From NCBI RefSeq assembly GCF_044324875.1, contig NZ_CP172185.1: a DNA stretch of 64,000 nt; one strand, written 5' to 3'. Source of the DNA: Escherichia coli. GTDB taxonomy: Bacteria > Pseudomonadota > Gammaproteobacteria > Enterobacterales > Enterobacteriaceae. Under the pieces are notes generated by a model, which saw only the letters and a list, made by a program, of their open reading frames with translations, did no database searches and was not told the DNA's origin. The translations under genes were made by a program, and so were the position numbers. Shown here piece after piece: positions 6,834 through 49,813 of the stretch. How positions within the stretch are numbered: position 1 is the stretch's first letter; each line of letters starts with the position of its first letter.

Positions 6834-7310
6834 TCAGTGGAGGAAATAGTTTTCGGTAACGTTGTTTTGCCCTTCATCGTCAGTCGGTAACAGCAGTTGA
6901 TGGGCATTAGCTTCAAGAATGACCATCGAAATCTGCTCTTCGCTCTGACGCAGGAACCATGCAAACTGCTCATAGGTTACGCCCTGCATAACGGATAAAG
7001 ACTGGCAAACCACCAGCTTTGGCAGATTATCATCCTGCATATCAAGAAATGCTTTCACGGTCAGCGAACTGGCATTGATGGCAGATAAATCTGCCGCCAG
7101 GGGCAATACGGCTGAAGGTCGGACTTCCGCCATGGCAGAAAACAGGATCGTGTTATCGATCAGATCGATTTTGGCATCAAAGACACCGTCGAAATTCTGC
7201 ATATGGGGCAGATGCAGAGCCTGACAGTTATCACATTCAAAAAAACTCATCCCCAGGTCATCGAGCCATTGACGCAGCGTATCCAGACCAGGAACGACCA
7301 GCGATGTCAT
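6834..7310 (-). CDS. ybjN: YbjN family protein
   Basis: 158 aa from MTSLVVPGLD; conserved position downstream of rimK. Confidence 0.85.
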   Translation of the reverse strand: MTSLVVPGLDTLRQWLDDLGMSFFECDNCQALHLPHMQNFDGVFDAKIDLIDNTILFSAMAEVRPSAVLPLAADLSAINASSLTVKAFLDMQDDNLPKLVVCQSLSVMQGVTYEQFAWFLRQSEEQISMVILEANAHQLLLPTDDEGQNNVTENYFLH

Positions 7311-7397: not shown

Positions 7398-8300
7398 CTA
7401 ACCACCCGTTTTCAGGCAATATTCCGCCGTAGCGTGGCGTTCGATCCAGCGGATCATTTTACCCGCGATGTCGATACCGGTGGTTTTTTCTATTCCTTCC
7501 AGCCCCGGCGACGCATTCACTTCCATCACCAACGGCCCGCGATTAGCACGCAAAATATCTACACCAGCAACATCCAGCGCCATCGTTCGCGCGGCTTTTA
7601 TCGCGATTTCACGCTCCTGTGGTGTGATACTGGCGACGCTTGCCGCGCCGCCACGATGCAAATTGGAACGAAAATCGCCCTCTTTCGCCCGCCGTTCAAT
7701 CGCAGCGACCACTTCATCGCCAACAACCAGACAGCGGATATCGCACCCTTGCGCCTCTTTGATATATTCCTGCACCAGAATATGCGCGTTCAGACCGCGG
7801 AAAGCGTCAATCACGCTTTCGGCCGCCTGACGCGTCTCCGCCAGCACGACGCCAATTCCCTGCGTGCCTTCAACCAACTTGACCACCAGCGGCGCACCAC
7901 CGACCATGTCGATTAAATCGCTGGTATCATCCGGCGAATGCGCAATGCCCGTGACAGGCAGGTCGATGCCCTGACGCGCCAGCAGTTGCATGGAACGCAA
8001 TTTGTCACGCGCCCGGGCAATGGCGACCGACTCATTGAGCGGATAGCTCCCCAGCATCTCGAACTGGCGCAGTGCCGCCGTCCCATAAAAGGTAATGGCG
8101 GTGCCAATACGCGGGATCACTGCGTCAAAATGAGGTAACTTGCGGCCTTTGTAGTGAATAGAAGACGCCGCAGGATTTATGTTCATGTAGCAAGAAAGCG
8201 GATCAAGAATTTCAACCAGGTGACCACGCTGTATAGCGGCTTCACGCAGCCGCTTACACGAATAGAGCGTTCCATCCCGGGACAATATGGCAATTTTCAC
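7398..8300 (-). CDS. rimK: ribosomal protein S6 glutamate ligase RimK (ATP-grasp)
   Basis: 300-aa ATP-grasp ORF (MKIAILSRD...). Confidence 0.93.
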
Positions 8301-8360
8301 CCTGCACCTCTCTGTCAGACCTGGTCAAAAGCCCGCGTATCATACATCGGCGTGGCGGTT

Positions 8361-8436
8361 TTAGCGCGTCGCCCAACCCTGTTTGTGCAAATAATCCAGA
8401 ATAAATGGGCGGCTTTCTTTAATGATTGTTCGGCGG
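8361..8436 (-). pseudogene. nfsA: detached 3' tail of nfsA (last ~24 codons, RRTIIKESRPFILDYLHKQGWATR-stop) left behind by the IS1 insertion
   Basis: Reverse-strand reading from the IS1 edge gives an open frame ending at TAA 8361-8363 and continues the NfsA frame across the target duplication. Confidence 0.8.
8428..8436. repeat. IS1 target-site duplication, left copy (GTTCGGCGG)
   Basis: Identical 9-mer immediately flanks both IS1 ends (8428-8436 and 9205-9213). Confidence 0.9.
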
Positions 8437-8491
8437 GGTGATGCTGCCAACTTACTGATTTAGTGTATGATGGTGTTTTTGAGGTGCTCCA

Positions 8492-8767
8492 GTGGCTTCT
8501 GTTTCTATCAGCTGTCCCTCCTGTTCAGCTACTGACGGGGTGGTGCGTAACGGCAAAAGCACCGCCGGACATCAGCGCTATCTCTGCTCTCACTGCCGTA
8601 AAACATGGCAACTGCAGTTCACTTACACCGCTTCTCAACCCGGTACGCACCAGAAAATCATTGATATGGCCATGAATGGCGTTGGATGCCGGGCAACTGC
8701 CCGCATTATGGGCGTTGGCCTCAACACGATTTTACGTCACTTAAAAAACTCAGGCCGCAGTCGGTAA
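8492..8767 (+). CDS. insA: IS1 protein InsA
   Basis: 91-aa [43 protein letters not shown] (zinc finger plus HTH). Confidence 0.95.
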
Positions 8768-9189
8768 CCTCGCGCATACAGCCGGGCAGTGACGTCATCG
8801 TCTGCGCGGAAATGGACGAACAGTGGGGCTATGTCGGGGCTAAATCGCGCCAGCGCTGGCTGTTTTACGCGTATGACAGGCTCCGGAAGACGGTTGTTGC
8901 GCACGTATTCGGTGAACGCACTATGGCGACGCTGGGGCGTCTTATGAGCCTGCTGTCACCCTTTGACGTGGTGATATGGATGACGGATGGCTGGCCACTG
9001 TATGAATCCCGCCTGAAGGGAAAGCTGCACGTAATCAGCAAGCGATATACGCAGCGAATTGAGCGGCATAACCTGAATCTGAGGCAGCACCTGGCACGGC
9101 TGGGACGGAAGTCGCTGTCGTTCTCAAAATCGGTGGAGCTGCATGACAAAGTCATCGGGCATTATCTGAACATAAAACACTATCAATAA
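8686..9189 (+). CDS. insB: IS1 InsB frame (transposase made as InsAB' by -1 frameshift)
   Basis: 167-aa ORF overlapping the insA 3' end in the -1 frame. Confidence 0.93.
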
Positions 9190-9204
9190 GTTGGAGTCAT
9201 TACC

Positions 9205-9213
9205 GTTCGGCGG
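9205..9213. repeat. IS1 target-site duplication, right copy (GTTCGGCGG)
   Basis: Same 9-mer as at 8428-8436. Confidence 0.9.
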
Positions 9214-9860
9214 ATATGATCGCTCCAGGTATCCCGGCGATTATTGCTGCCACGTGTGAGGTAATATTCCGCCAGTTGTTCGTCATACTGCGCCAGTGCG
9301 TCTTTATCCAGCGGTTGATAGCTGTTTTCATGCACCAAAATGGAGGACGGTAAACGCGGCTTAAGATCCGGATTATCCGCAGGCCAGCCAAGGCACAGCC
9401 CAAACAGCGGCAGAACATGCTGCGGTAATTTCAGCAGCTCCGTCACCGCTTCAATATTATTGCGCAGGCCGCCGATATATACCCCGCCCAATCCCAGCGA
9501 TTCCGCTGCGGTTAATGCATTCTGCGCCATCATTGCCGTATCAACGACACCGAGCAACAGTTGTTCCGCCAGGCCGAGCTGAGCATCCGGACAGATCTGT
9601 AAATGGCGGTTAAAGTCGGCACAGAACACCCAAAACTCCGCCGCTTGCGCTACGTGTTTTTGCCCGCCGGTCAGCGCCACCAGTTCTTCACGTAACGCTT
9701 TGTCGGTAATGCGAATAATGCTACTGCACTGCAAAAAACTGGAACTGGACGTCGCACGGGCGCTGTTAATAATCGCCTCACGCTGCGCTTCGGAAATGGG
9801 TTCATCAGTGAAATGGCGAATGGAGCGATGGCCACAAATAAGTTCAATGGTTGGCGTCAT
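9205..9860 (-). pseudogene. nfsA: oxygen-insensitive NADPH nitroreductase NfsA, 5' portion (~218 codons); C-terminus replaced by 7 IS1-encoded residues
   Basis: ORF 9183..9860 reads MTPTIELICGHRSIRHFTDEPIS...DTWSDHIRRT then VMTPTY-stop inside IS1; the native tail lies at 8361-8436. Confidence 0.88.
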
Positions 9861-10131
9861 TATCTTTTTCTCTTTCTGAACGTGAATATTGCGGTGGACG
9901 GTTCATCAGCTGTGGGGCAAGACGTTTTGCCACCTGAAGAATAACCACCACCGCAGCGGGAAGCATGAGCAAAACACCGAGAAAAATCATCAGAATCTGC
10001 ACTTCTGGCCGAGAAAATGGCTCAGGCAGCGACAGGGAGCCGCTTACCGACAGCAGCGCCACCGCCAGCAACATCATTCCGATAAATTCCAGTATCAACA
10101 CGCTTTTAGGCAATTTACCGATCGCGCGCAT
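9844..10131 (-). CDS. ybjC: small membrane protein YbjC
   Basis: 95-aa ORF immediately upstream of nfsA and overlapping its start. Confidence 0.85.
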   Translation of the reverse strand: MRAIGKLPKSVLILEFIGMMLLAVALLSVSGSLSLPEPFSRPEVQILMIFLGVLLMLPAAVVVILQVAKRLAPQLMNRPPQYSRSEREKDNDANH

Positions 10132-10290
10132 ACGCTTCCCTCTGCAAAGTGAGCCTTCAGTCTAAAACTTTTCACTGTATTGTGTTTAACAGTTATAGCT
10201 TTTAGCAATTAATGCAACAGGTTAAACCTACTTTCAGCGAATACATTTTAGCGTGATCATTACAGGCATAAATCTATGAGGAGAGAAATA

Positions 10291-10548
10291 ATGCAAACCG
10301 TTATTTTTGGTCGTCCGGGTTGCCCTTACTGTGTGCGTGCAAAAGATCTGGCTGAGAAATTGAGCAATGAACGCGATGATTTTCAGTATCAGTATGTAGA
10401 TATTCGTGCGGAAGGGATCACTAAAGAAGATCTACAACAAAAGGCAGGTAAACCCGTAGAAACCGTGCCGCAGATTTTTGTCGATCAGCAACATATCGGC
10501 GGCTATACCGATTTTGCTGCATGGGTGAAAGAGAATCTGGACGCCTGA
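10291..10548 (+). CDS. grxA: glutaredoxin 1
   Basis: MQTVIFGRPGCPYCVRAKDLAEK with the CPYC active site; SD GAGGAGAG upstream. Confidence 0.95.
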   Translation: MQTVIFGRPGCPYCVRAKDLAEKLSNERDDFQYQYVDIRAEGITKEDLQQKAGKPVETVPQIFVDQQHIGGYTDFAAWVKENLDA

Positions 10549-10557
10549 TCGTCTGAC

Positions 10558-10590
10558 AAGCCCTCGCGTTGAGGGCTTTATTGATTTTTT
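10558..10590 (+). terminator. rho-independent terminator after grxA (AAGCCCTC-GCGTT-GAGGGCTT then T-run); overlaps the ybjM 3' end
   Basis: Perfect 8-bp stem followed by TATTGATTTTTT. Confidence 0.7.
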
Positions 10591-10955
10591 CTGTGCTGTG
10601 GTTTAAACAAACTACTGATAAATAAGAAACACAGTGCCCCCAGCGCACACCAGAACACCGCACTTAATAACCATGCCAGCTCTTGCCAGAATGAGCGCGT
10701 CGGTGAAAAAAACAGCCGCATAATAAGCATTGAACAGGGTGCCGCCAGCATTGCGCCAAACAGAGGTTTCAGGACTTCTCTACGCTGTGAAAAGAAGCTG
10801 GCAACTGCTCCAGGAAGAATGAAAAACAGCAAGCCGATTTCAGGATGCCCGGCAGCCCGAAAAGCGCCTTTCATGTGCGTCGCCAGAAAAAGGCACACCA
10901 CAATGAAGAGGACAAAACAGCAGATTGCCCCCGCCCAACGTTGTTTATGTTTCAC
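10578..10955 (-). CDS. ybjM: inner membrane protein YbjM
   Basis: 125-aa hydrophobic ORF in the conserved position. Confidence 0.85.
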   Translation of the reverse strand: MKHKQRWAGAICCFVLFIVVCLFLATHMKGAFRAAGHPEIGLLFFILPGAVASFFSQRREVLKPLFGAMLAAPCSMLIMRLFFSPTRSFWQELAWLLSAVFWCALGALCFLFISSLFKPQHRKNQ

Positions 10956-11224
10956 TCGTTCCTCCTGACACTGCGTCTATCGAACACATTTTTCGCCAGT
11001 GTGGCGTTCAGTAAGATAAAGCCGCTTCGCATTCCATGCTAATATAGGCCAACGCAATTCATATAGCCGTTGATACCTAATGTGATTACACTAGTAAAAT
11101 ATATTGTTACTTTACTATCGTTTAGGTGCGCTGAATGAATCTGCGCCCTGAATTCTGGTAAAAAACATTATCGTAAATTACCATTTCTTTCAACAGCTTA
11201 CTAGTAAACAAGAAGTTAGCCTCC

Positions 11225-12910
11225 GTGAATATAAACGTCGCCGAATTGTTAAATGGGAATTACATTCTGTTATTATTTGTGGTCCTCGCGCTTGGGCTAT
11301 GTCTCGGGAAATTACGACTTGGTTCGATCCAACTGGGTAATTCCATTGGCGTTTTAGTCGTATCGCTGTTATTAGGCCAACAACATTTCAGCATTAACAC
11401 CGACGCGCTTAATCTTGGCTTTATGCTGTTTATTTTCTGCGTCGGGGTCGAAGCCGGACCGAACTTTTTTTCCATTTTTTTTCGCGATGGGAAAAATTAC
11501 CTAATGTTAGCACTGGTGATGGTTGGCAGTGCGCTGGTGATCGCCTTAGGGTTAGGTAAGCTGTTTGGCTGGGATATTGGCCTGACGGCCGGTATGTTAG
11601 CAGGCTCTATGACGTCGACACCGGTTCTGGTCGGTGCTGGCGATACACTGCGTCATTCCGGCATGGAAAACAGGCAGCTCTCACTGGCACTGGATAATCT
11701 GAGCCTCGGGTATGCCTTAACCTATTTAATCGGTCTGGTGAGTTTGATTGTTGGTGCGCGTTACTTGCCGAAATTGCAGCATCAGGACTTACAGACCAGC
11801 GCCCAGCAAATCGCCCGCGAACGTGGCCTGGACACTGATGCCAACCGTAAGGTTTATTTACCGGTGATCCGCGCCTACCGCGTCGGCCCGGAGCTGGTAG
11901 CCTGGACCGACGGCAAAAATCTGCGTGAACTGGGTATTTATCGACAAACTGGCTGTTACATTGAACGTATTCGGCGTAACGGGATTCTGGCAAATCCAGA
12001 CGGTGATGCCGTACTACAAATGGGCGATGAAATAGCGTTGGTAGGCTATCCTGACGCCCACGCCCGACTCGATCCCAGTTTCCGTAATGGCAAAGAAGTT
12101 TTCGATCGTGACCTTCTCGACATGCGTATCGTCACTGAAGAAGTGGTCGTTAAAAACCATAACGCTGTTGGCAAACGCCTGGCACAACTGAAGTTGACCG
12201 ATCACGGTTGCTTCCTTAACCGCGTCATACGTAGCCAGATTGAGATGCCGATTGATGACAACGTCGTGCTTAACAAAGGTGACGTTTTACAAGTCAGCGG
12301 CGATGCCCGCCGGGTAAAAACCATCGCCGATCGCATCGGCTTTATCTCGATTCACAGCCAGGTCACTGACTTGCTGGCATTCTGCGCCTTCTTTGTTATT
12401 GGGCTGATGATCGGGATGATCACCTTCCAGTTCAGCACATTCAGTTTCGGCATGGGGAACGCTGCCGGGTTGTTATTCGCCGGAATTATGCTGGGCTTTA
12501 TGCGTGCTAACCACCCGACCTTCGGTTACATTCCGCAGGGTGCATTAAGCATGGTGAAAGAGTTCGGCTTGATGGTGTTTATGGCAGGCGTTGGTCTGAG
12601 CGCCGGTAGCGGTATTAATAACGGCCTGGGCGCGATTGGCGGTCAGATGTTGATTGCCGGATTGATTGTCAGTCTGGTGCCCGTGGTTATCTGTTTCTTG
12701 TTCGGTGCTTATGTATTGCGAATGAACCGCGCACTGTTGTTCGGCGCAATGATGGGCGCACGCACCTGCGCGCCGGCAATGGAGATCATCAGTGATACAG
12801 CTCGCAGTAACATCCCGGCGCTGGGCTATGCGGGCACTTACGCAATCGCCAACGTCCTGCTGACGCTGGCAGGGACAATCATCGTCATGGTATGGCCAGG
12901 ATTAGGATAA
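11225..12910 (+). CDS. ybjL: putative transporter YbjL (two-repeat AAE-type transporter with TrkA-C domains)
   Basis: 561-aa ORF with N- and C-terminal membrane halves around a soluble domain. Confidence 0.9.
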
Positions 12911-12952
12911 AACTGAAGTTGCCCTGAAAATGAAATTTTTTTGCACAACCGC

Positions 12953-12981
12953 AGAACTTTTCCGCAGGGCATCAGTCTTAA
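12953..12981 (+). promoter_or_regulatory. sigma-E type promoter of rybB (-35 GAACTT, -10 region GTCTTA)
   Basis: GAACTT about 16 nt upstream of TCTTA, just before the RybB 5' end; RybB is a known sigma-E regulon member. Confidence 0.6.
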
Positions 12982-12986
12982 TTAGT

Positions 12987-13065
12987 GCCACTGCTTTTCT
13001 TTGATGTCCCCATTTTGTGGAGCCCATCAACCCCGCCATTTCGGTTCAAGGTTGGTGGGTTTTTT
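12987..13065 (+). ncRNA. rybB: Hfq-dependent small RNA RybB
   Basis: GCCACTGCTTTTCTTTGATGTCCCCATTTTGTGGAGCCCATCAACCCCGCCATTTCGGTTCAAGGTTGGTGGGTTTTTT matches RybB as recalled, including the terminator hairpin and T-run, in the expected ybjL-rcdA intergenic position. Confidence 0.9.
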
Positions 13066-13084
13066 GTTGCCTATAATTTATCTA

Positions 13085-13621
13085 CTACCCTGCAACCCTC
13101 TCAACCATCCTCAAAATCTCCTCGCGCGATAGCGGCTTACGGTCGGTGACAAAATGCAGCGTCATCCCCTCAATAAACGCATCAAGCGCGCGGGCGGTTC
13201 CGGGTTCAAACCATTGTTCGAGCGTTTGCTGACTGCGCTGCATCCAGTTTTGCATTACCGTTTTTAATAGCGGTTTTCGGCTAGCCAGCGCGTAGAGCTG
13301 GTACATCAGCTCCATGTTATCCGGCGTTGCAACCTGTGAGCTGTAGATCATATCGGTGATAGCCTGGCATGCGCCTTGAGCATCACTAACATCGCTAAAA
13401 AATGCCTGATATTGCCGGGACATGATCTCAGTAAAACTGCTGAACGCCTCCAGCAACAACTCATCAATTCCTGAAAAATAGTAGGTCATCGACCCCAACG
13501 GTACCCCGGCAAGGGTAGCAATTTTGCGGTGCGTAACAGCATGTATTCCGTAAAGTTTCACCGCCTCCAGCGTGGCCTGGATAATTTTTTCTCGCCGTTG
13601 CGGATCGTTAGCGCGACGCAT
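13085..13621 (-). CDS. rcdA: TetR-family transcriptional regulator RcdA (YbjK)
   Basis: Start at [21 protein letters not shown] with an N-terminal TetR HTH; 178 aa. Confidence 0.88.
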
Positions 13622-41728: not shown

Positions 41729-42994
41729 ATGGCTTCTACTTTTACCAGCGACACATTGCCTGCCGATCACAAAGCAGCTATCCGTCAGATGAAGCACGCG
41801 CTGCGGGCACAGCTTGGCGACGTCCAGCAGATCTTTAATCAGCTAAGCGATGACATTGCTACGCGAGTGGCTGAAATCAACGCACTCAAAGCACAGGGCG
41901 ATGCCGTCTGGCCGGTGCTGTCTTATGCCGATATCAAAGCAGGTCATGTTACTGCAGAGCAGCGCGAACAGATTAAACGTCGCGGTTGTGCGGTGATAAA
42001 AGGCCATTTCCCCCGCGAACAAGCGCTAGGCTGGGATCAGTCGATGCTGGACTATCTGGACCGCAACCGCTTTGACGAGGTCTACAAAGGCCCCGGCGAT
42101 AATTTCTTCGGGACGCTCAGCGCTTCACGTCCCGAGATTTACCCCATCTACTGGTCGCAGGCGCAAATGCAGGCCCGCCAGAGTGAAGAAATGGCGAATG
42201 TGCAGTCGTTTCTCAATCGTCTGTGGACATTTGAAAGTGATGGAAAGCAATGGTTTAACCCGGATGTGAGCGTCATCTACCCTGACCGTATCCGCCGCCG
42301 TCCGCCCGGAACGACCTCCAAAGGTCTTGGAGCGCATACCGACTCCGGGGCGCTGGAACGCTGGCTGCTTCCAGCGTATCAGCACGTTTTCGCCAACGTC
42401 TTTAATGGCAATCTGGCGAAATACGATCCCTGGCATGCGGCACATCGTACGGAAGTTGAAGAGTACACGGTGGACAACACCACCAAATGTTCCGTGTTTC
42501 GGACATTCCAGGGCTGGACAGCGCTCTCTGATATGCTGCCTGGTCAGGGGCTGCTGCACGTCGTGCCCATTCCTGAAGCCATGGCGTACGTACTGTTACG
42601 TCCGCTGCTTGATGATGTGCCGGAGGATGAACTGTGCGGCGTAGCGCCCGGAAGAGTATTGCCGGTATCAGAGCAATGGCATCCACTGTTGATTGAGGCG
42701 TTAACCAGCATTCCAAAACTCGAAGCCGGAGACTCCGTCTGGTGGCACTGCGACGTCATCCATTCCGTTGCCCCCGTTGAAAATCAACAGGGCTGGGGCA
42801 ACGTGATGTACATTCCTGCGGCACCGATGTGCGAGAAAAATCTTGCCTACGCGCACAAGGTGAAGGCCGCACTGGAAAAAGGCGCATCGCCGTGCGACTT
42901 CCCGCGCGAGGACTATGAAACAAACTGGGAAGGACGCTTTACGCTTGCCGACCTCAACATTCACGGTAAGCGAGCGTTGGGAATCGACAGCTGA
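41729..42994 (+). CDS. ybiU: DUF1479 family protein YbiU
   Basis: 421 aa from MASTFTSDTLPADHKAAIRQ. Confidence 0.88.
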   Translation: MASTFTSDTLPADHKAAIRQMKHALRAQLGDVQQIFNQLSDDIATRVAEINALKAQGDAVWPVLSYADIKAGHVTAEQREQIKRRGCAVIKGHFPREQALGWDQSMLDYLDRNRFDEVYKGPGDNFFGTLSASRPEIYPIYWSQAQMQARQSEEMANVQSFLNRLWTFESDGKQWFNPDVSVIYPDRIRRRPPGTTSKGLGAHTDSGALERWLLPAYQHVFANVFNGNLAKYDPWHAAHRTEVEEYTVDNTTKCSVFRTFQGWTALSDMLPGQGLLHVVPIPEAMAYVLLRPLLDDVPEDELCGVAPGRVLPVSEQWHPLLIEALTSIPKLEAGDSVWWHCDVIHSVAPVENQQGWGNVMYIPAAPMCEKNLAYAHKVKAALEKGASPCDFPREDYETNWEGRFTLADLNIHGKRALGIDS

Positions 42995-44064
42995 GTGTCG
43001 TACAGCCCTTCCCGTTCCACGGCGGTGTTCCCTTTTCCTGGGCGAACCCGCCGCACTGACTCCCGCACCGCCAATCGTCCGTGCAGCAGCAGCGAGCCCA
43101 CCGGAGCATCCGGGCGAATCAGCCGCTGTTGCAACATTTGCACCGCTTCATTGCCTAGCTCATCGCATGGCACATGCACAGCCGTCAGGGGAACATCCTC
43201 GATTGCCGCAAGGTTAAAGCCGTCGATACTCATCACCGAGACATCCTGTGGTACGCGCAGACCACGACGATGTAGCGCATTTACCGTTCCCGCCGCCATA
43301 AAATCCCCGCCGACCAGAAACGCCGTCGGCAACGTCTTGCCATTGGCGGCATCCAGCCACGCTCCGACCTTTTCTTCCGCTTCTTTAGCGCTAAAACTGC
43401 TGATATTCAGCAAATGACGGTCATGGTGAAAGGCCAGATTATGCTGACGCCATGATTCTTTAATCCCTGCAAACCGCTGCTCCATAGTGTAGCGGCGCAG
43501 GCACATCACATTCATCACCTCCCGGTGACCCATTTCAAACAGATAGCGGGCGGCGAACGCGCCAATTAACCGATGGTCCGGCGCAATCGCCGGGAGGCGC
43601 ATTCGTTCATCACGGCAGTTGATCAGCACACAAGGCTTAGCGAGATCGGCGGCCAGATCATGGATGTGCGGATCGTCAATCCCCAGCAGGATCGCCGCCT
43701 GCGTATCTGCTTCATTCATCCGCGAGAGAAATAGCGCGGGATCGCTGTCAAACTCCTCCAGCGCGCAGTAACGCAGCCGCACTTCATGCGGCGATAACGC
43801 TTTGCTGATGCTCTGGATCACACGGTAATAAAAGATATCAGATCGTTGGTCAAAAGCGCGTTGCGGCGCGAAAATAATCAGGTTGTTCAGCAACATACGA
43901 CCTGCTGCCATGCCATCCATCACGCCCAACTCACGCGCGCAGGCCAGCACCTGTTCGCGAGCGCGTGCACTGGTATTCGCTTTGCCAGCCAGCACCCGCG
44001 AAACCGTACTCGGCGATAGCCCGGTACGTGCGGCGATATCGGCGATTTTCAGCTTCTTGTCCAT
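42961..44064 (-). CDS. LacI-family transcriptional regulator (accessory)
   Basis: N-terminal HTH MDKKLKIADIAARTGLSPSTVSRVLAG followed by a periplasmic-binding-protein-like sugar domain; its 3' end overlaps the ybiU 3' end by 34 nt. Confidence 0.85.
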   Translation of the reverse strand: MDKKLKIADIAARTGLSPSTVSRVLAGKANTSARAREQVLACARELGVMDGMAAGRMLLNNLIIFAPQRAFDQRSDIFYYRVIQSISKALSPHEVRLRYCALEEFDSDPALFLSRMNEADTQAAILLGIDDPHIHDLAADLAKPCVLINCRDERMRLPAIAPDHRLIGAFAARYLFEMGHREVMNVMCLRRYTMEQRFAGIKESWRQHNLAFHHDRHLLNISSFSAKEAEEKVGAWLDAANGKTLPTAFLVGGDFMAAGTVNALHRRGLRVPQDVSVMSIDGFNLAAIEDVPLTAVHVPCDELGNEAVQMLQQRLIRPDAPVGSLLLHGRLAVRESVRRVRPGKGNTAVEREGLYDTQLSIPNARLP

Positions 44065-44358
44065 TTTGTGATCTGCCTCTAATTCGGAAATGACAGAATT
44101 TTCATGAGCAAAAAAGCCCATTCTGTCTGGCATTAAATCCATTTCAGTAATGTATATCAGTCACTCATGGAAAAACGTGCACAAAACCCGCTTTCTTTCG
44201 CTTTTAGGGTCTCTTACTGTGAATTGGTAGAACAACTTCCATACAAAAATAATGGAAAAACGAACAATAAAGACTTTATTTATCAAAAAGTTAAAAGTGG
44301 TGTGACAACTCCATTCTGACGTTGCCGCACAAACCCTATACCATTCTGTGGAGTGCAT

Positions 44359-45660
44359 ATGAGTCAGGGTATCAATAACGATATGACTGCCAGTAAACCG
44401 CGCCATATCGTCAAAAATCTGCGTTGGTGGATACTGGTCCTTTTTTTGCTCGGTGTTACTGTCAACTACATCACGCGTAACTCGCTGGGTATTCTCGCCC
44501 CCGAACTGAAAAGCAACCTGGGGATTACCACCGAACAATATTCCTGGATTGTAGGTGCTTTCCAGCTCGCCTATACCCTATTCCAACCGTTGTGTGGATG
44601 GCTGATTGACGTCATTGGCCTCAAACTGGGCTTTATGATCTGCGCGGGACTGTGGGCGCTGGCCTGTCTGATGCATGCGGGGGCGGGAAACTGGGTACAT
44701 CTGGCGCTGTTGCGCTTCTTTATGGGCGGTGCGGAAGCCGCGGCAACCCCAGCAAACGCCAAAACCATCGGTGAATGGTTTCCAAAATCAGAACGCCCGA
44801 TCGCCGCAGGCTGGGCAGGCGTCGGTTTTTCCATCGGTGCCATGCTGGCCCCACCGATTATCTATTTTGCCCACGCTTCATTCGGCTGGCAGGGTGCATT
44901 TATGTTCACTGGCATCCTGGCGATGCTGTGGGTGGTGCTGTGGTGGGCGTTCTATCACAACCCGGATAAGCATCCTAACCTCAGCAAAGCCGAGCTGGAC
45001 TTTATCCGCCAGGATAACGAAGCGCCCCCTGTCAAGTTACCCTTTCTGACCGCACTGAAAACCGTAGGCAAAAATAAACGCTTTTACGGTATCGCTATCC
45101 CGGCCTTTATGGCAGAACCGGCGTGGGCGGTGATGAGTTTCTGGGTTCCGCTATACCTGTCCAAAACCTATGGCATGGACCTGAAGCAGATCGCATTATT
45201 CGCCTGGTTGCCGTTCCTCGCCGCTGATCTTGGCAGTATTGCCAGCGGCTATCTGACCAAACTTTACACCCGCCTGTTTGGGCTGAGTCGTGTGAACTCC
45301 GTTGTCGCATCATCGGTCAGTGGCGCATTCCTGATGGTTTCGCTGGCGGTGATGGCCTTTACCAATAACCCGTATATCGCCATCGTCCTTATTTCCATCG
45401 GCGGCTTCGGTCACCAGATCATCTCCTGCATGCTGAGCGCACTGGTGGTGGAATCCTTCGACAAAGGTCAGATGGCCACTGTTAACGGCATGCGCGGTTC
45501 TGCCGCGTGGATCGCAAGTTTCCTGTTCTCCCTGATTATCGGGGTTACCGCTGACAAAATCGGCTTTAACCCCCTGTTTATCGCCATGGGCTTCTTTGAC
45601 CTGATTGGTGCTTTCTTCCTGGTCACCTTTATTGCTGAACGTCGCGCAAAACGCGCCTGA
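44359..45660 (+). CDS. MFS transporter, anion:cation symporter (ACS, ExuT/DgoT-like) family
   Basis: 12-TM ORF; start taken at ATG 44359 with SD GGAG (ORF track opens at GTG 44353). Confidence 0.82.
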   Translation: MSQGINNDMTASKPRHIVKNLRWWILVLFLLGVTVNYITRNSLGILAPELKSNLGITTEQYSWIVGAFQLAYTLFQPLCGWLIDVIGLKLGFMICAGLWALACLMHAGAGNWVHLALLRFFMGGAEAAATPANAKTIGEWFPKSERPIAAGWAGVGFSIGAMLAPPIIYFAHASFGWQGAFMFTGILAMLWVVLWWAFYHNPDKHPNLSKAELDFIRQDNEAPPVKLPFLTALKTVGKNKRFYGIAIPAFMAEPAWAVMSFWVPLYLSKTYGMDLKQIALFAWLPFLAADLGSIASGYLTKLYTRLFGLSRVNSVVASSVSGAFLMVSLAVMAFTNNPYIAIVLISIGGFGHQIISCMLSALVVESFDKGQMATVNGMRGSAAWIASFLFSLIIGVTADKIGFNPLFIAMGFFDLIGAFFLVTFIAERRAKRA

Positions 45661-45674
45661 GAGTGGATGTAAAC

Positions 45675-48038
45675 ATGAAAACGCTGAAAAACTGGACCCT
45701 GCACAAACAGTCTGCCCACCACGTTGAACTGCTGGTCGATGGCCAGCATATCCTGTGCCTGTACGTGCTGGAAGAAAATCTGTTCCGCGTGCTGTTAAAA
45801 CGCAAAGGCGAGCTGGCGCTGGATCGCACCTGGAGCATTGCTCCGGCGCAGGATGTGCCATGGGAAGGGCGCAGCCGCGAAGATCTCAGCGGCTTTAGCC
45901 TGCCCGCGTGGACATTGATCCAGCACGACGACACCGTGGTTATCGCCACCGAGTCACTGCGTGCCACCGTTCACCAGCCGCTGTGGCTGGAGTGGCACTA
46001 TCGTAACAACGAAGGCGAATGGCTGCCGTTGGTGAATGACCGCCCGACCAGCGCTTATCTGCTGAATGCCCACGGCGACGGCGTGGCGCACTATCAGAGC
46101 CGTCGTAAAGATGAACGCTTTTATGGCCTCGGAGATAAAGCCGGCGACCTGCAACGCAACGGTAAACGTTACGAGATGCGTAACCTCGACGCGATGGGCT
46201 ACAACGCCGTTAGTACTGACCCGTTGTACAAACACATTCCATTCACCATCACCCGCCGCGATGACATTAGCTTCGGCCTGTTTTATGACAACCTCAGCAG
46301 CTGCTGGCTGGATCTGGGCAACGAGATCGACAACTACCACACCGCCTATCGCCGCTGGCAGGCGGAAGCGGGTGATATCGACTACTACCTGTTTACCGGC
46401 GAACGCGTACTTGATATCACCAAAGCCTTCGTACGCCTGACCGGCAAAACCCTGTTCGGACCGAAATGGAGCCTGGGCTACAGCGGTTCAACTATGCACT
46501 ACACCGATGCGCCGGACGCACAAAATCAGTTGATGAACTTTATCCGCCTGTGTGAAGAACATGCGATTCCCTGCGATTCGTTCCAGCTCTCTTCCGGTTA
46601 TACCTCAATTAACGGCAAGCGCTATGTGTTCAACTGGAATTACGACAAAGTGCCGCAGCCGAAAGTGATGAGCCAGGCATTTCACAATGCTGGTTTGCAC
46701 CTGGCCGCCAATATCAAGCCGTGCCTGTTGCAGGATCACCCACGCTATAACGAAGTGGCAGAAAGAGGACTGTTCATCCGTGATTCAGAAACAGATGAAC
46801 CAGAACGTTCCAGCTTCTGGGATGACGAAGGTTCTAACCTCGACTTTACTAATCCGCAGACCATCCAGTGGTGGCAGGAAGGCGTGACCACACAGCTTCT
46901 GGAGATGGGTATCGACTCCACCTGGAACGACAACAACGAATTCGAAGTATGGGACGGTGAAGCACGCTGTCACGGCTTTGGTCAGACGATCGCGATCAAA
47001 CATATTCGCCCGGTGATGCCACTGCTGATGATGCGAGCCTCGATGGAAGCCCAGCAACGTTTCGCTCCGGAAAAACGTCCGTACTTGATCTCCCGCTCCG
47101 GCTGCGCGGTAATGCAGCGCTATGTGCAGACCTGGAGCGGCGATAACCGCACTAGCTGGGACACTCTGCGCTACAACACCCGCATGGGTCTGGGGATGAG
47201 CCTCTCCGGGCTGTATAACCTCGGTCACGACGTCGGCGGTTTCTCCGGTGATAAGCCGGACCCGGAACTGTTTGTACGCTGGGTACAAAACGGCGTGATG
47301 CATCCGCGCTTTACGATTCACTCGTGGAACGATGACCATACCGTAAACGAACCGTGGATGTATCCGGGCGTCACTCCGGCGATCCGCAGCGCTATTGAGT
47401 TGCGCTATCGCCTGCTGCCCTACTTTTATACCCTGATGTGGCAGGCATACGCCGATGATGAACCAATGCTGCGTCCGACTTTCCTTGACCACGAGCACGA
47501 CGTTCAGACTTTTGAAGAGTGTGATGACTTCCTGCTTGGTCGCGATATTTTGGTTGCCAGCGTCGTAGAGCAAGGCGAGCGCCAGCGCCGTGTATGGCTG
47601 CCAGATAACGAAACTGGCTGGTACGATTTCTACAACGGCGAATGGTTCAGTGGCGGTCAGTGGATCACCCTCGACGCACCGCTGGAGAAACTGCCGCTGA
47701 TGGTGCGTGCCGGGGCTGGTCTACCGCTCAGCAAACGCATCACCTATGTGAGCGCAGAACAAGACGATACCCGCGAACTGAAACTGTTCCCGCTGAAAGG
47801 TGTGGGCACAACGTCCGGCCTGCTGTTTGAAGACGATGGCGAAAGCTGGGGCTACCAAACTGGTAATGCGCTTTGGGTGGAATGGGAAATGGTTTGCGAT
47901 GGGGCGACCATCAACCTGAAAGTCAACGCGCGCGGGGATTATCGACCTGCATGGAGTGCACTGAAAGTGTCATTACCAGTGGAAGAAAAACGCACGCTGC
48001 TGGTCAATGGTGTTGAAGGGAGTGAATGGATGCGTTAA
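45675..48038 (+). CDS. glycoside hydrolase family 31 (alpha-glucosidase / alpha-xylosidase-like), ~787 aa
   Basis: GH31 motifs: candidate nucleophile in STWNDNNEF and acid/base in GHDVGGF; start 12 nt after the MFS stop (ATG 45675; GTG 45663 also possible). Confidence 0.85.
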   Translation: MKTLKNWTLHKQSAHHVELLVDGQHILCLYVLEENLFRVLLKRKGELALDRTWSIAPAQDVPWEGRSREDLSGFSLPAWTLIQHDDTVVIATESLRATVHQPLWLEWHYRNNEGEWLPLVNDRPTSAYLLNAHGDGVAHYQSRRKDERFYGLGDKAGDLQRNGKRYEMRNLDAMGYNAVSTDPLYKHIPFTITRRDDISFGLFYDNLSSCWLDLGNEIDNYHTAYRRWQAEAGDIDYYLFTGERVLDITKAFVRLTGKTLFGPKWSLGYSGSTMHYTDAPDAQNQLMNFIRLCEEHAIPCDSFQLSSGYTSINGKRYVFNWNYDKVPQPKVMSQAFHNAGLHLAANIKPCLLQDHPRYNEVAERGLFIRDSETDEPERSSFWDDEGSNLDFTNPQTIQWWQEGVTTQLLEMGIDSTWNDNNEFEVWDGEARCHGFGQTIAIKHIRPVMPLLMMRASMEAQQRFAPEKRPYLISRSGCAVMQRYVQTWSGDNRTSWDTLRYNTRMGLGMSLSGLYNLGHDVGGFSGDKPDPELFVRWVQNGVMHPRFTIHSWNDDHTVNEPWMYPGVTPAIRSAIELRYRLLPYFYTLMWQAYADDEPMLRPTFLDHEHDVQTFEECDDFLLGRDILVASVVEQGERQRRVWLPDNETGWYDFYNGEWFSGGQWITLDAPLEKLPLMVRAGAGLPLSKRITYVSAEQDDTRELKLFPLKGVGTTSGLLFEDDGESWGYQTGNALWVEWEMVCDGATINLKVNARGDYRPAWSALKVSLPVEEKRTLLVNGVEGSEWMR

Positions 48039-48217
48039 ATCATTACCGGGGCCGGGAGGCGACTGCGCCTTACCCGGTCCAGCCATCGAATCCTTTACCT
48101 CAGTATTTCACGCTGCAGGAAGGCAGCAAACCTGTAAACCCCGGGAGCTTAAATAAGTAAGTGACCGGGGTGAACAGGTGAAGCCAATGCATCTGCCGCA
48201 TGAAAGACGGCGGGAAA

Positions 48218-49813
48218 TTAACCGTCGATCCCTTTACTACGCAGATAATCTTCGTAATTACCGCTAAAGTCGATCACGCGTTCCGGGGTGATTTCCAGAA
48301 TACGGGTCGCCAGGGAGCTTACGAACTCACGGTCGTGTGAAACAAAGATCAGCGTGCCCTGATACAGTTCCAGCGCCATGTTCAGCGACTCAATAGATTC
48401 CATATCCAGGTGGTTGGTCGGTTCGTCCATGATCAGAATGTTCGGCTTCTGCATCATTAATTTACCAAACAGCATCCGCCCTTTTTCTCCACCGGAAAGC
48501 ACTTTCGCTGGCTTTTTGATGTCGTCCTGGCTAAACAGCAAACGACCGAGAATGCTGCGTACCGCCTGCTCGTCATCGCCTTCCTGCTTCCACTGGCTCA
48601 TCCATTCGAACACGGTCAGATCATTTTCGAACTCATATTCATGGTCCTGGGCGTAGTAACCAATGCGTGCGTTTTCAGACCATTTTACGGTGCCGCTGTC
48701 CGGTTGCAGATCGCCCACCAGCGTTTTCAGCAGCGTTGATTTACCGACGCCGTTGGTACCCAGTACCGCCAGTTTTTCACCGACCTCCAGCAGCAGGTTG
48801 AGATTTTTAAACAGCGGACCGTTATCAAACCCTTTGGTCAGACCTTCCACTTCCAGCGCGTTACGGAACAGTTTCTTATCCTGTTCAAAACGGATGAACG
48901 GGTTCTGACGGCTGGAGGCTTTCACCTCTTCCAGTTTGATTTTATCAATCTGGCACGCGCGCGAAGTTGCCTGGCGAGATTTCGAGGCGTTGGCACTAAA
49001 GCGGCTAACGAAAGATTGCAGCTCAGCAATCTGCGCTTTCTTCTTGGCGTTATCAGCCAGCAGACGCTCACGCGCCTGGGTCGCCGCCGTCATGTACTCA
49101 TCGTAGTTACCTGGATAAACGCGCAGCTCGCCGTAATCCAGATCAGCCATGTGGGTACAAACCATGTTAAGGAAGTGACGGTCGTGCGAGATGATGATCA
49201 TGGTGCTGTCACGCTCGTTCAGCACCTGTTCCAGCCAACGAATGGTGTCGATGTCGAGGTTGTTGGTCGGTTCGTCGAGCAGGAGAATGTCCGGATCAGC
49301 AAACAGCGCCTGCGCCAGCAGCACACGCAGCTTCCAGCCAGGAGCAACTTCACTCATCGGGCCGTAGTGCTGTTCCACTGGAATTCCCACGCCAAGCAAC
49401 AGTTCACCGGCGCGAGCTTCCGCAGAGTAACCGTCCATTTCGCCGTATTTCACTTCCAGATCGGCCACTTTATAGCCGTCTTCTTCACTCATTTCCGGCA
49501 AAGCATAGATGCGGTCACGCTCCTGTTTCACTTCCCACAACTCTTTATGCCCCATGATCACCGTATCCAACACAGTGAACTCTTCAAAGGCAAACTGATC
49601 CTGACGCAGCTTACCAATGCGCTCGTTGGGATCGAGGGAAACGTTACCCAACGTCGGCTCTAAGTCGCCGCCGAGGATCTTCATAAAGGTGGATTTACCA
49701 CTACCGTTCGCGCCAATCAGGCCGTAACGGTTGCCGCCGCCAAATTTGACGGAAATGTTTTCAAACAACGGCTTACTGCCGAACTGCATGGTGACGTTAC
49801 TGGAAACTAACAC
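48218..49813 (-). CDS. ybiT: ABC-F family ATPase YbiT
   Basis: 531 aa with two ABC domains ([18 protein letters not shown]) and no membrane domain. Confidence 0.92.

Follow-up and report, generated by a model that had tools for sequence, protein, structure and literature searches.

Insertion of IS1 into the 3′ part of nfsA

The nfsA gene in the analysed stretch of Escherichia coli DNA (64,000 nucleotides, referred to as the window) is interrupted by a simple IS1 insertion into its 3′ part, which duplicated 9 bp of target sequence. We regard it as highly probable that the explanation built on this insertion holds as a whole, in that it leaves NfsA residues 1–219 followed by six foreign residues, abolishes the function of the enzyme, confers a first-step nitrofuran phenotype, and renders rimK-ybjN expression reduced or uncoupled from its normal control.

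Direct reading of the sequence together with a repeat finder located a complete IS1 of the IS1A/IS1R type at positions 8437–9204, on the plus strand and thus opposite to nfsA. A reading of the DNA from its letters alone (the sequence-only reading) had proposed a complete 768-bp IS1 within nfsA, and this was confirmed by the exact size of the element, its intact insA and InsAB′ frames, and its terminal inverted repeats. The 23-nt left repeat (IRL; 8437–8459) and the right repeat (IRR; 9182–9204) are imperfect, with 18 of 23 positions complementary (78% according to the repeat finder), and the start GGTGATGCTGCCAACTTACTGAT typical of the IS1 family is present. Reading of the ORFs revealed insA (8492–8767, plus strand, 91 aa) and the insB′ frame (8686–9189, plus strand), connected by an A6C programmed –1 frameshift motif (8743–8749, plus strand) across which translation yields a stop-free InsAB′ fusion of 232 aa. 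This fusion matches the NCBIfam equivalog model of the IS1 family transposase (NF033558) with an E-value of 6e-73, its score of 245 bits exceeding the model's cut-off of 100. The element differs from IS1A of MG1655 at 3 of 768 positions and shares 99.9% identity with many plasmid-borne copies annotated as IS1A. Its assignment to the IS1 family therefore draws on its size (about 768 bp) and inverted repeats, the A6C frameshift, a target duplication within the 8–9 bp range and near-identity to reference copies. The element is intact and active-looking, and a second, identical copy elsewhere in the window (25860–26627) is an indirect sign that it may be able to transpose.

Both ends of the element directly abut an exact 9-bp direct repeat, GTTCGGCGG, of which the left copy (8428–8436) corresponds to nfsA nt 648–656 and the right copy lies at 9205–9213 (repeat finder and excision in silico). 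A 9-mer count found this sequence only twice in the window, at these very positions, while a specific 9-mer would recur by chance at a given position with a probability of about 4e-6. The insertion point is located between nt 656 and 657 of nfsA, so that the coding sequence carries a disruptive lesion. Deleting the IS1 and one repeat copy in silico restored an ORF of 240 aa that is identical to K-12 NfsA at 235 of 240 residues and aligns with PDB 1F5V across residues 1–240, and the 31 nt surrounding the target were identical to MG1655 after this excision. The earlier proposal of a perfect target duplication left by simple transposition is thereby borne out.

The interrupted reading frame and its product

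On the minus strand, nfsA starts with the ATG at 9860 and ends with the TAA at 8363–8361, and its position within ybjC-nfsA-rimK-ybjN is collinear with MG1655. ORF reading combined with the excision showed that the interrupted ORF (9183–9860, minus strand) encodes 225 aa, consisting of 219 native residues (nt 1–656, positions 9860–9205) followed by VMTPTY and a new stop codon, a TGA that is carried by the IRR (minus strand, 9183–9185). Thr219 is retained, with its codon changed from ACA to ACG. The detached 3′ remnant (8361–8436, minus strand) contains one copy of the 9-bp duplication, then the last base of codon 219, followed by codons 220–240 and the TAA. After excision in silico it encodes IIKESRPFILDYLHKQGWATR, which is the same as in K-12, and as had been anticipated the nfsA tail thus continues the NfsA frame of the full-length references (K-12 and PDB 1F5V). 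The sequence-only reading had correctly recognised a truncation with an IS-encoded tail, but its estimate of some 24 codons lost and 7 residues gained needs correction: 21 codons (220–240) plus the stop were detached, 24 being obtained only when the three duplicated codons are counted as well, and six residues (VMTPTY) are new.

When compared with the NCBIfam model for NfsA (NF008033), the 225-aa product covered profile positions 1–221 of 240 and scored 401.8 bits against a cut-off of 223. Nevertheless, it lacks the complete C-terminus of NfsA, including Arg225, and hence represents an interrupted rather than an intact nfsA allele.

Nitrofuran susceptibility and the origin of the insertion

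From the position of the insertion we infer that NfsA function is very likely lost, since nfsA lesions located more distally have been described in isolates with a nitrofurantoin MIC of 256 mg/L. Specifically, both 693InsIS1R and 666delA (E223fs) lie downstream of nt 656/657 (PMC8767348), although these isolates and those with W212R (MIC of 128–256 mg/L altogether) also carry nfsB lesions, so that the MIC is that of the whole isolate (PMC8767348). The truncated protein is most likely inactive or unstable, and the resulting loss of the main oxygen-insensitive NADPH nitroreductase would weaken the activation of nitrofurans.

With regard to the size of the effect, the nitrofurantoin MIC of nfsB single mutants was reported to equal that of the parent, while it rose 2-fold in nfsA single mutants and reached 128 mg/L in the double mutant (PMC9890214). 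We would expect the present insertion alone to raise the MIC about 2-fold, yielding a 'pre-resistant' strain that is still susceptible unless nfsB is lost too. The view that NfsA loss constitutes the first step to nitrofuran resistance, put forward in the sequence-only reading, fits the published work (PMC8767348, PMC9890214, PMC8286842, PMC9912195), and its wording of 'reduced susceptibility' rather than 'resistance' is apt because a single nfsA knockout causes a rise of only about 2-fold (PMC9890214). The allele marks a lineage that is probably one nfsB mutation short of clinical nitrofurantoin resistance. Within the 64-kb window, a tblastn search gave no match to nfsB, as its map position predicts; nfsB, ribE and oqxAB are all located outside the window.

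Whether nitrofurans selected for the insertion is a separate matter, as it might also have arisen neutrally or by hitch-hiking, as a side effect of IS1 activity, with the loss of NfsA being incidental, a scenario that we consider possible while leaning against it. A second IS1 copy, 100% identical to the first, is present 17 kb away in the window (25860–26627), where no target duplication accompanies it and pdeI/dgcI carries an associated deletion of 1,970 bp, indicating recent IS1 activity in this genome. Moreover, many E. coli genomes carry IS1 elsewhere in ybjC-nfsA-rimK-ybjN, also outside the nfsA coding sequence, and in the absence of the drug nfsA loss entails little measurable fitness cost (PMC9890214). 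However, sub-MIC nitrofurantoin favours first-step nfsA mutants, and isolates that are nfsA-negative and nfsB-positive are far commoner than the reverse (PMC9890214). About 5% of susceptible urinary isolates were found to be 'pre-resistant' (bioRxiv 10.1101/2024.01.25.577238), and the present allele of IS1 in nfsA has been kept in several independently sequenced isolates, which argues against a purely incidental event. The selected and the neutral origin share an identical molecular mechanism.

Possible effects on the downstream genes rimK and ybjN

The operon neighbours of nfsA are all encoded on the minus strand. The first gene, ybjC (9844–10131; ORF reading and NF007883), overlaps the nfsA start, whereas the intact rimK (7398–8300; ORF reading, and positions 1–300 of 300 of the NF007764 equivalog) is next downstream, with its start 137 bp past the left end of IS1, and is followed by ybjN (6834–7310; ORF reading and synteny with MG1655) as the last gene. 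Because ybjC-nfsA-rimK-ybjN is given as a single operon (PMC4207228), a polar effect of the IS1 on rimK-ybjN, as suggested in the sequence-only reading, is reasonable and appears plausible. Transcription from the ybjC promoter would have to traverse the IS1 in antisense before reaching rimK-ybjN, and expression of these genes is therefore probably reduced or uncoupled from SoxS/OxyR. A terminator scan yielded sites no more numerous than in shuffled sequences, and is thus silent on polarity.

This polarity could in turn be offset by a candidate hybrid promoter that faces rimK (8422–8450, minus strand). Its –35 hexamer TTGGCA lies in the IRL (8450–8445) and its –10 hexamer AATCAT in the nfsA remnant (8427–8422), separated by a 17-nt spacer, and 122 bp lie between this candidate and the rimK start. 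The inverted repeat of IS1 is known to carry an outward –35 element that forms a hybrid promoter if a –10 element is present at the right distance (PMC8764528; table in PMC9330008). The arrangement resembles the IS1 hybrid promoters of Prentki et al. 1986, in which, as far as these are summarised in PMC8764528 and PMC9330008, a –35 in the IS1 end is likewise placed 17 nt from a flanking –10-like hexamer; unlike those promoters, the present candidate shows only a weak consensus match and is known from sequence.

The main consequence of the insertion could therefore be regulatory, with the hybrid promoter driving rimK-ybjN constitutively and uncoupled from SoxS/OxyR. The 17-nt spacing, the agreement with consensus at 9 of 12 positions and the precedent for such promoters at IS1 ends would speak for this, but we deem it unlikely. 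The –10 hexamer is weak (4 of 6 positions, without an extended TG), and a chance match is quite possible given that the number of promoter-like sites (4) compares with 2.0 ± 1.3 in shuffled sequences. Furthermore, only one of three IS1 insertions created an active hybrid promoter (PMC8764528), and deletion of rimK leaves the nitrofurantoin MIC unchanged (PMC9890214). It likewise seems quite improbable that the allele has been retained for a double effect, in which NfsA is inactivated while a constitutive hybrid promoter replaces the SoxS/OxyR-controlled read-through into rimK-ybjN. If true, the insertion would go beyond simple polarity and would rewire how the gene for ribosomal S6 glutamylation and ybjN are expressed.

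The lost C-terminal segment and possible residual NfsA activity

Loss of NfsA function, the consequence we favour, also depends on the importance of the residues that were detached. In the NfsA crystal structures, Arg225 contacts every ligand present, lines the active site and hydrogen-bonds nitrofurantoin (PMC8286842, PMC9912195), while being braced across the dimer interface by Glu99 (PMC8286842). Homologues of the NfsA/FRP type with solved structures (5uu6, 1bkj, 5hdj, 3n2s, 1zch and 5hei) aligned to within 0–3 residues of the C-terminus, which places the lost segment within the conserved fold. A Pfam scan of the restored NfsA reported PF00881 at residues 10–159 only, and since it returned no C-terminal domain model it is uninformative on the lost segment.

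The 225-aa product retains this whole Pfam nitroreductase core (10–159) as well as Arg203 and Arg208 of the NADPH-phosphate loop. Single substitutions of Arg225 were reported to lower kcat and alter specificity while not abolishing activity (PMC9912195), and in FRP, a homologue, NADPH binding was hardly affected by R225A (PMC8286842). Some residual activity of the truncated NfsA is thus possible, given the retained residues and the turnover by Arg225 mutants, and one could argue that the insertion is real but that the truncated protein (residues 1–219 plus VMTPTY) remains active enough, as a hypomorph or a silent variant, to leave susceptibility unchanged. The persistence of both the core domain and the excursion domain with its two arginines, together with a profile score far above the NCBIfam cut-off, would be in line with this. 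However, we judge it improbable, since E223fs and the IS1R at nt 693 truncate NfsA even less and nonetheless occur in the isolates with an MIC of 256 mg/L, in which the only other lesion concerns nfsB (PMC8767348), and since loss of nfsB alone leaves the MIC unraised (PMC9890214). The nearby W212R substitution moreover leaves NfsA with 3% activity (bioRxiv 10.1101/2024.01.25.577238), and the C-terminal segment is conserved to its end in the structural homologues, with Arg225 tied to Glu99 of the other subunit. The NfsA background substitutions I117T, K141E, A172S and G187D were described as functionally silent (bioRxiv 10.1101/2024.01.25.577238).

Distribution of the allele and other IS1 insertions at nfsA

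The exact left junction, used as a 60-nt query, was covered by no record among 5,426 complete RefSeq E. coli genomes, and JGI metagenome contigs gave no match to a 39-nt exact junction pattern, indicating that the allele is rare in both collections. The best identity to complete E. coli genomes was only 99.3%. A junction with 100% identity was nevertheless found in the NCBI draft assembly GCA_027706465.1 and in the Logan assemblies SRR8502404 and SRR21141407, and the identical 225-aa protein is present in NCBI under the label 'nitroreductase NfsA'. Its records include MDA2816195.1, MDA5216399.1, MDA5580407.1 and MEF9563221.1, and the public copies are all labelled E. coli, which speaks against the Shigella origin that the IS1 load and the identity of only 99.3% had brought into consideration. 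A search for literature on GCA_027706465, SRR8502404, SRR21141407 or the protein accession returned none. Although IS1 is multi-copy and short-read contigs break inside it, as seen at three loci that all end in IS1, the chance that repeat mis-assembly misplaced the element into nfsA is negligible, as a perfect 9-bp duplication directly borders the element on each side, the ORF is recovered precisely upon excision in silico, and the nfsA–IRR junction is the same in three independent assemblies.

The present nfsA allele is new, while the kind of event, an IS1 in nfsA, is already well known and involves no new mechanism. Whiteway and colleagues (1998; J Bacteriol 180:5529, as cited in PMC12428005 and PMC8767348) reportedly selected first-step nitrofuran-resistant mutants of K-12 in the laboratory in which IS elements had disrupted nfsA. 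Their mutants belong to the same class of event, in which nfsA is inactivated as the first of two steps and nfsB follows, whereas the present allele occurs in natural isolates.

A close published parallel is found in the nitrofurantoin-resistant ST1463 isolates IN01 and IN02 (Wan et al. 2021, PMC8767348), which likewise carry a 768-bp IS1R with 9-bp repeats on the opposite strand at the nfsA 3′ end, and in which NfsA is likewise shortened only slightly at its C-terminus. They differ in the insertion site (nt 693/694 versus 656/657), in lineage, and in carrying NfsB G192D with an MIC of 256 mg/L (PMC8767348). In strain 504838 (NZ_CP025856.1), an IS1 in the same orientation lies at nfsA nt 666–674, 18 bp downstream of the present site, with a 9-bp duplication CGGCTTTCT and a 231-aa product annotated as ordinary NfsA. 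Both the target and the isoform (99.1% identical to the present IS1) are different, which marks this as an independent event. Since the 225-aa and 231-aa products have been deposited as NfsA, genotype-to-phenotype pipelines based on annotation or on about 90% coverage could call nfsA intact in such strains, although the practical value of this observation is modest.

IS1 flanked by both sides of the locus was found in 41 genomes, scoring same-orientation copies only. On inspection, some of them had IS1 between ybjN and rimK, in the 3′ end of ybjC or at the 5′ end of nfsA, and because some copies thus sit elsewhere in the locus, 41 is not a count of nfsA disruptions. The site at nt 656/657 adds one more to the independent IS1 hits in nfsA, which together show the gene to be a recurrent IS1 target. 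Many complete genomes (e.g. APEC E16002 and strain 268.2) carry a same-orientation IS1 at nfsA nt ~413–421, a site that differs from 656/657 in lying in the middle of the gene; there the duplication is 8 bp long (CGTCACCG) and nfsA is annotated as a split pseudogene. Two distinct IS1 isoforms, sharing 99.1% and 94.1% identity with the present IS1, were found at this site, which suggests that nt ~413–421 is an IS1 hot spot.

An intact IS1 element interrupts the 3′ end of nfsA

The 768-bp element at 8437–9204, delimited by reading the sequence at 7800–10400 and by a repeat finder, is an intact IS1 located within nfsA. Its imperfect 23-nt terminal inverted repeats, called by the repeat finder (GGTGATGCTGCCAACTTACTGAT at 8437–8459, with its partner at 9182–9204), enclose insA (8492–8767), the A6C frameshift motif (8743–8749) and an open insB′ frame, and the –1 frameshifted product of 232 aa matches the NCBIfam IS1 transposase equivalog NF033558. 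Every testable feature of IS1 was found in this element, which differs from the IS1A of MG1655 at 3 of 768 positions and to which many plasmid-borne IS1A copies are 99.9% identical. Both of its ends are abutted by the 9-mer GTTCGGCGG (8428–8436 and 9205–9213), which has only these two copies within the 64-kb window. Because of this coding organisation, the near-identity to IS1A and the flanking 9-mer, the element is identified as an intact IS1 that arrived by simple insertion, with the 9-bp target duplication classical for such an event. The sequence-only reading, which had described a complete IS1 with a perfect 9-bp duplication in nfsA, proved exact in this respect by reading, repeat finder and in-silico excision.

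The interrupted minus-strand ORF starts at 9860, enters the right end of IS1 and stops at 9183, yielding a product of 225 aa. In-silico excision of IS1 together with one repeat copy restored a 240-aa protein whose alignment with E. coli NfsA (PDB 1F5V) spans residues 1–240, bearing out the claim that the nfsA tail continues the NfsA frame. Over the 31 nt surrounding the target, the sequence does not differ from MG1655 nfsA, and the neighbours (ybjC, full-length rimK, ybjN, grxA and potF) stand in K-12 order. All testable features of nfsA were thus found in the target, save for the complete C-terminus that the encoded product lacks. Specifically, IS1 inserted between nt 656 and 657 (counted from the ATG), so that Thr219 is kept, residues 220–240 (IIKESRPFILDYLHKQGWATR) are cut off and left in a remnant at 8427–8361, and six IS1-encoded residues (VMTPTY) are appended to NfsA 1–219. 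The detached 3′ end and the added IS-encoded residues had therefore been recognised correctly, with slightly high counts (~24 codons and 7 residues, instead of 21 and six). The restored protein carries the substitutions T62A, I117T, K141E, A172S and G187D with respect to K-12 NfsA; the last four are experimentally silent in function, T62A being outside that study's set (bioRxiv 10.1101/2024.01.25.577238).

The interrupted allele is shared by several isolates

Mis-assembly of IS1 into nfsA was ruled out by nfsA–IS1 junctions 100% identical to that of the window in contigs of GCA_027706465.1 and of the Logan assemblies SRR8502404 and SRR21141407, which also show that the allele is common to several sequenced isolates. 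NCBI lists the same 225-aa protein in several accessions, each with the name “nitroreductase NfsA [Escherichia coli]”, and an uninterrupted form of the same nfsA allele exists as well (HAW2565798.1, NCBI). The exact junction was found neither among 5,426 complete RefSeq E. coli genomes nor in JGI metagenome contigs. As the backbone around nfsA (9214–13200) reached a best identity of 99.3% among those 5,426 genomes, the source genome or a near relative is absent from them.

The truncation very probably abolishes NfsA function

The lost C-terminal segment includes Arg225. In crystal structures, nitrofurantoin, hydroquinone and inhibitor FMN are hydrogen-bonded by this residue, which is braced across the dimer interface by Glu99 (PMC8286842). 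A modelled contact further links Arg225 to the nicotinamide ribose of NADPH; enzymes substituted at this position have a lower kcat and an altered substrate specificity (PMC9912195). Moreover, since alignments with NfsA/FRP-type homologues of solved structure reach within 0–3 residues of the C-terminus, the conserved fold includes the lost segment.

Natural isolates with more distal nfsA lesions provide the strongest argument for loss of function. The frameshift 666delA (E223fs) and IS1R inserted at nt 693 were both reported in isolates with a nitrofurantoin MIC of 256 mg/L, in which the other lesion lies in nfsB (PMC8767348). Because mutants lacking only nfsB have the MIC of their parent (PMC9890214), these distal nfsA lesions must themselves abolish function. 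Both are located downstream of the window's insertion site, and the cut at residue 219 takes away more of the protein than either. We therefore consider it very likely that the window's allele has lost NfsA function.

With regard to phenotype, a strain in which only nfsA is knocked out has an about 2-fold higher nitrofurantoin MIC and remains clinically susceptible, nfsA nfsB double mutants reach 128 mg/L, and first-step mutants are favoured at 4–8 mg/L nitrofurantoin (PMC9890214). Such “pre-resistant” genotypes (nfsA lost, nfsB intact) occur in about 5% of susceptible urinary isolates (bioRxiv 10.1101/2024.01.25.577238). The nfsB gene, on which the strain's actual level of resistance would depend, is not present in the 64-kb window.

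IS1 insertions are frequent at the nfsA locus

Insertional inactivation of nfsA by IS1 is a known mechanism; no earlier description of an insertion at nt 656/657 was found. The closest published case differs in having IS1R at nt 693/694 (PMC8767348), and the closest sequence case is strain 504838, in which IS1 lies at nt 666–674, 18 bp downstream of the window's site. The latter likewise encodes an IS1-fused, C-terminally shortened product (231 aa, L001 2529–3224, WP_126125493.1, next to 225 aa at 9183–9860 in the window). In public records both products are plain “nitroreductase NfsA” with no pseudogene label, and at 401.8 bits the 225-aa product clears the family cut-off of 223. The main practical point is that resistance prediction may miss such alleles, because the truncated products are simply called NfsA by automated annotation.

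Other IS1 insertions are frequent here: 41 complete genomes carry a same-orientation IS1 near these flanks. Among six loci inspected in these genomes, that of strain 504838 included, IS1 was located between ybjN and rimK (L008), in the ybjC 3′ end (L009), at the nfsA 5′ end (L010), and twice at nfsA nt ~413–421 with the 8-bp duplication CGTCACCG (APEC E16002, L002; strain 268.2, L003). These last two copies (2036–2803 in each locus) lie in unrelated strains and are different isoforms, sharing 99.1% and 94.1% identity with the IS1 of the window, suggesting that nt ~413–421 is an insertion hot spot hit independently. Among the matches listed, 16 rows (these two and 14 further) have a 1367-bp span and a split nfsA annotation, and judging from these features probably share the mid-gene site, which was verified for L002 and L003 only.

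Effect on rimK and ybjN

In its classical behaviour, IS1 is polar in either orientation, and polarity on rimK–ybjN had been proposed. The element is antisense to the four genes ybjC-nfsA-rimK-ybjN, listed as a single operon that is SoxS-activated and OxyR-repressed (PMC4207228). A caveat to polarity is a candidate outward hybrid promoter toward rimK (8450–8422, minus strand), in which TTGGCA of the IS1 left repeat is separated from AATCAT by 17 nt that contain the 9-bp duplication; it is a weak match from a consensus scan that overall was not clearly above shuffles. IS1 carries an outward –35 element, and a hybrid promoter can form if a –10 is suitably spaced (PMC8764528; PMC9330008). Deletion of rimK leaves the MIC unchanged (PMC9890214).

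Other features of the window

A second IS1 (25860–26627, minus strand), 100% identical to the nfsA copy, lacks a target duplication (flanks CAAAATGGT and GCCAGATAC); the flanking stretches are 25334–25859 and 26628–27226. At this position 1,970 bp of MG1655 are absent (K-12 874167–876136), comprising 1,161 bp of the pdeI 3′ part and 802 bp of the dgcI 5′ part. This looks like an adjacent deletion tied to IS1 that would have removed a c-di-GMP phosphodiesterase/cyclase pair. The preceding ca. 1 kb between rimO and the dgcI remnant (24338–25333), not in MG1655, corresponds to a RelE/ParE-family toxin and HTH antitoxin pair annotated in strain WP3-W18-ESBL-08 (L007 2559–3264).

Also not in MG1655 is a stretch of about 5.2 kb between ybiU and ybiT (42988–48224), encoding an MFS transporter of the D-galactonate transporter subfamily (44353–45660) and a 791-aa alpha-glucosidase/alpha-xylosidase-like protein (45663–48038). 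Collinearity with MG1655 finally ends in the glnH–glnP intergenic region (K-12 847207), at an island (58570–64000) that runs past the window end and would separate glnH from glnPQ. It is led by a P4-type tyrosine integrase (58736–59929), followed by a 351-aa ORF (60295–61350) and a 222-aa protein (62395–63063, minus strand) matching the PADLOC candidate defence family PDC-S29 (E=6e-86).
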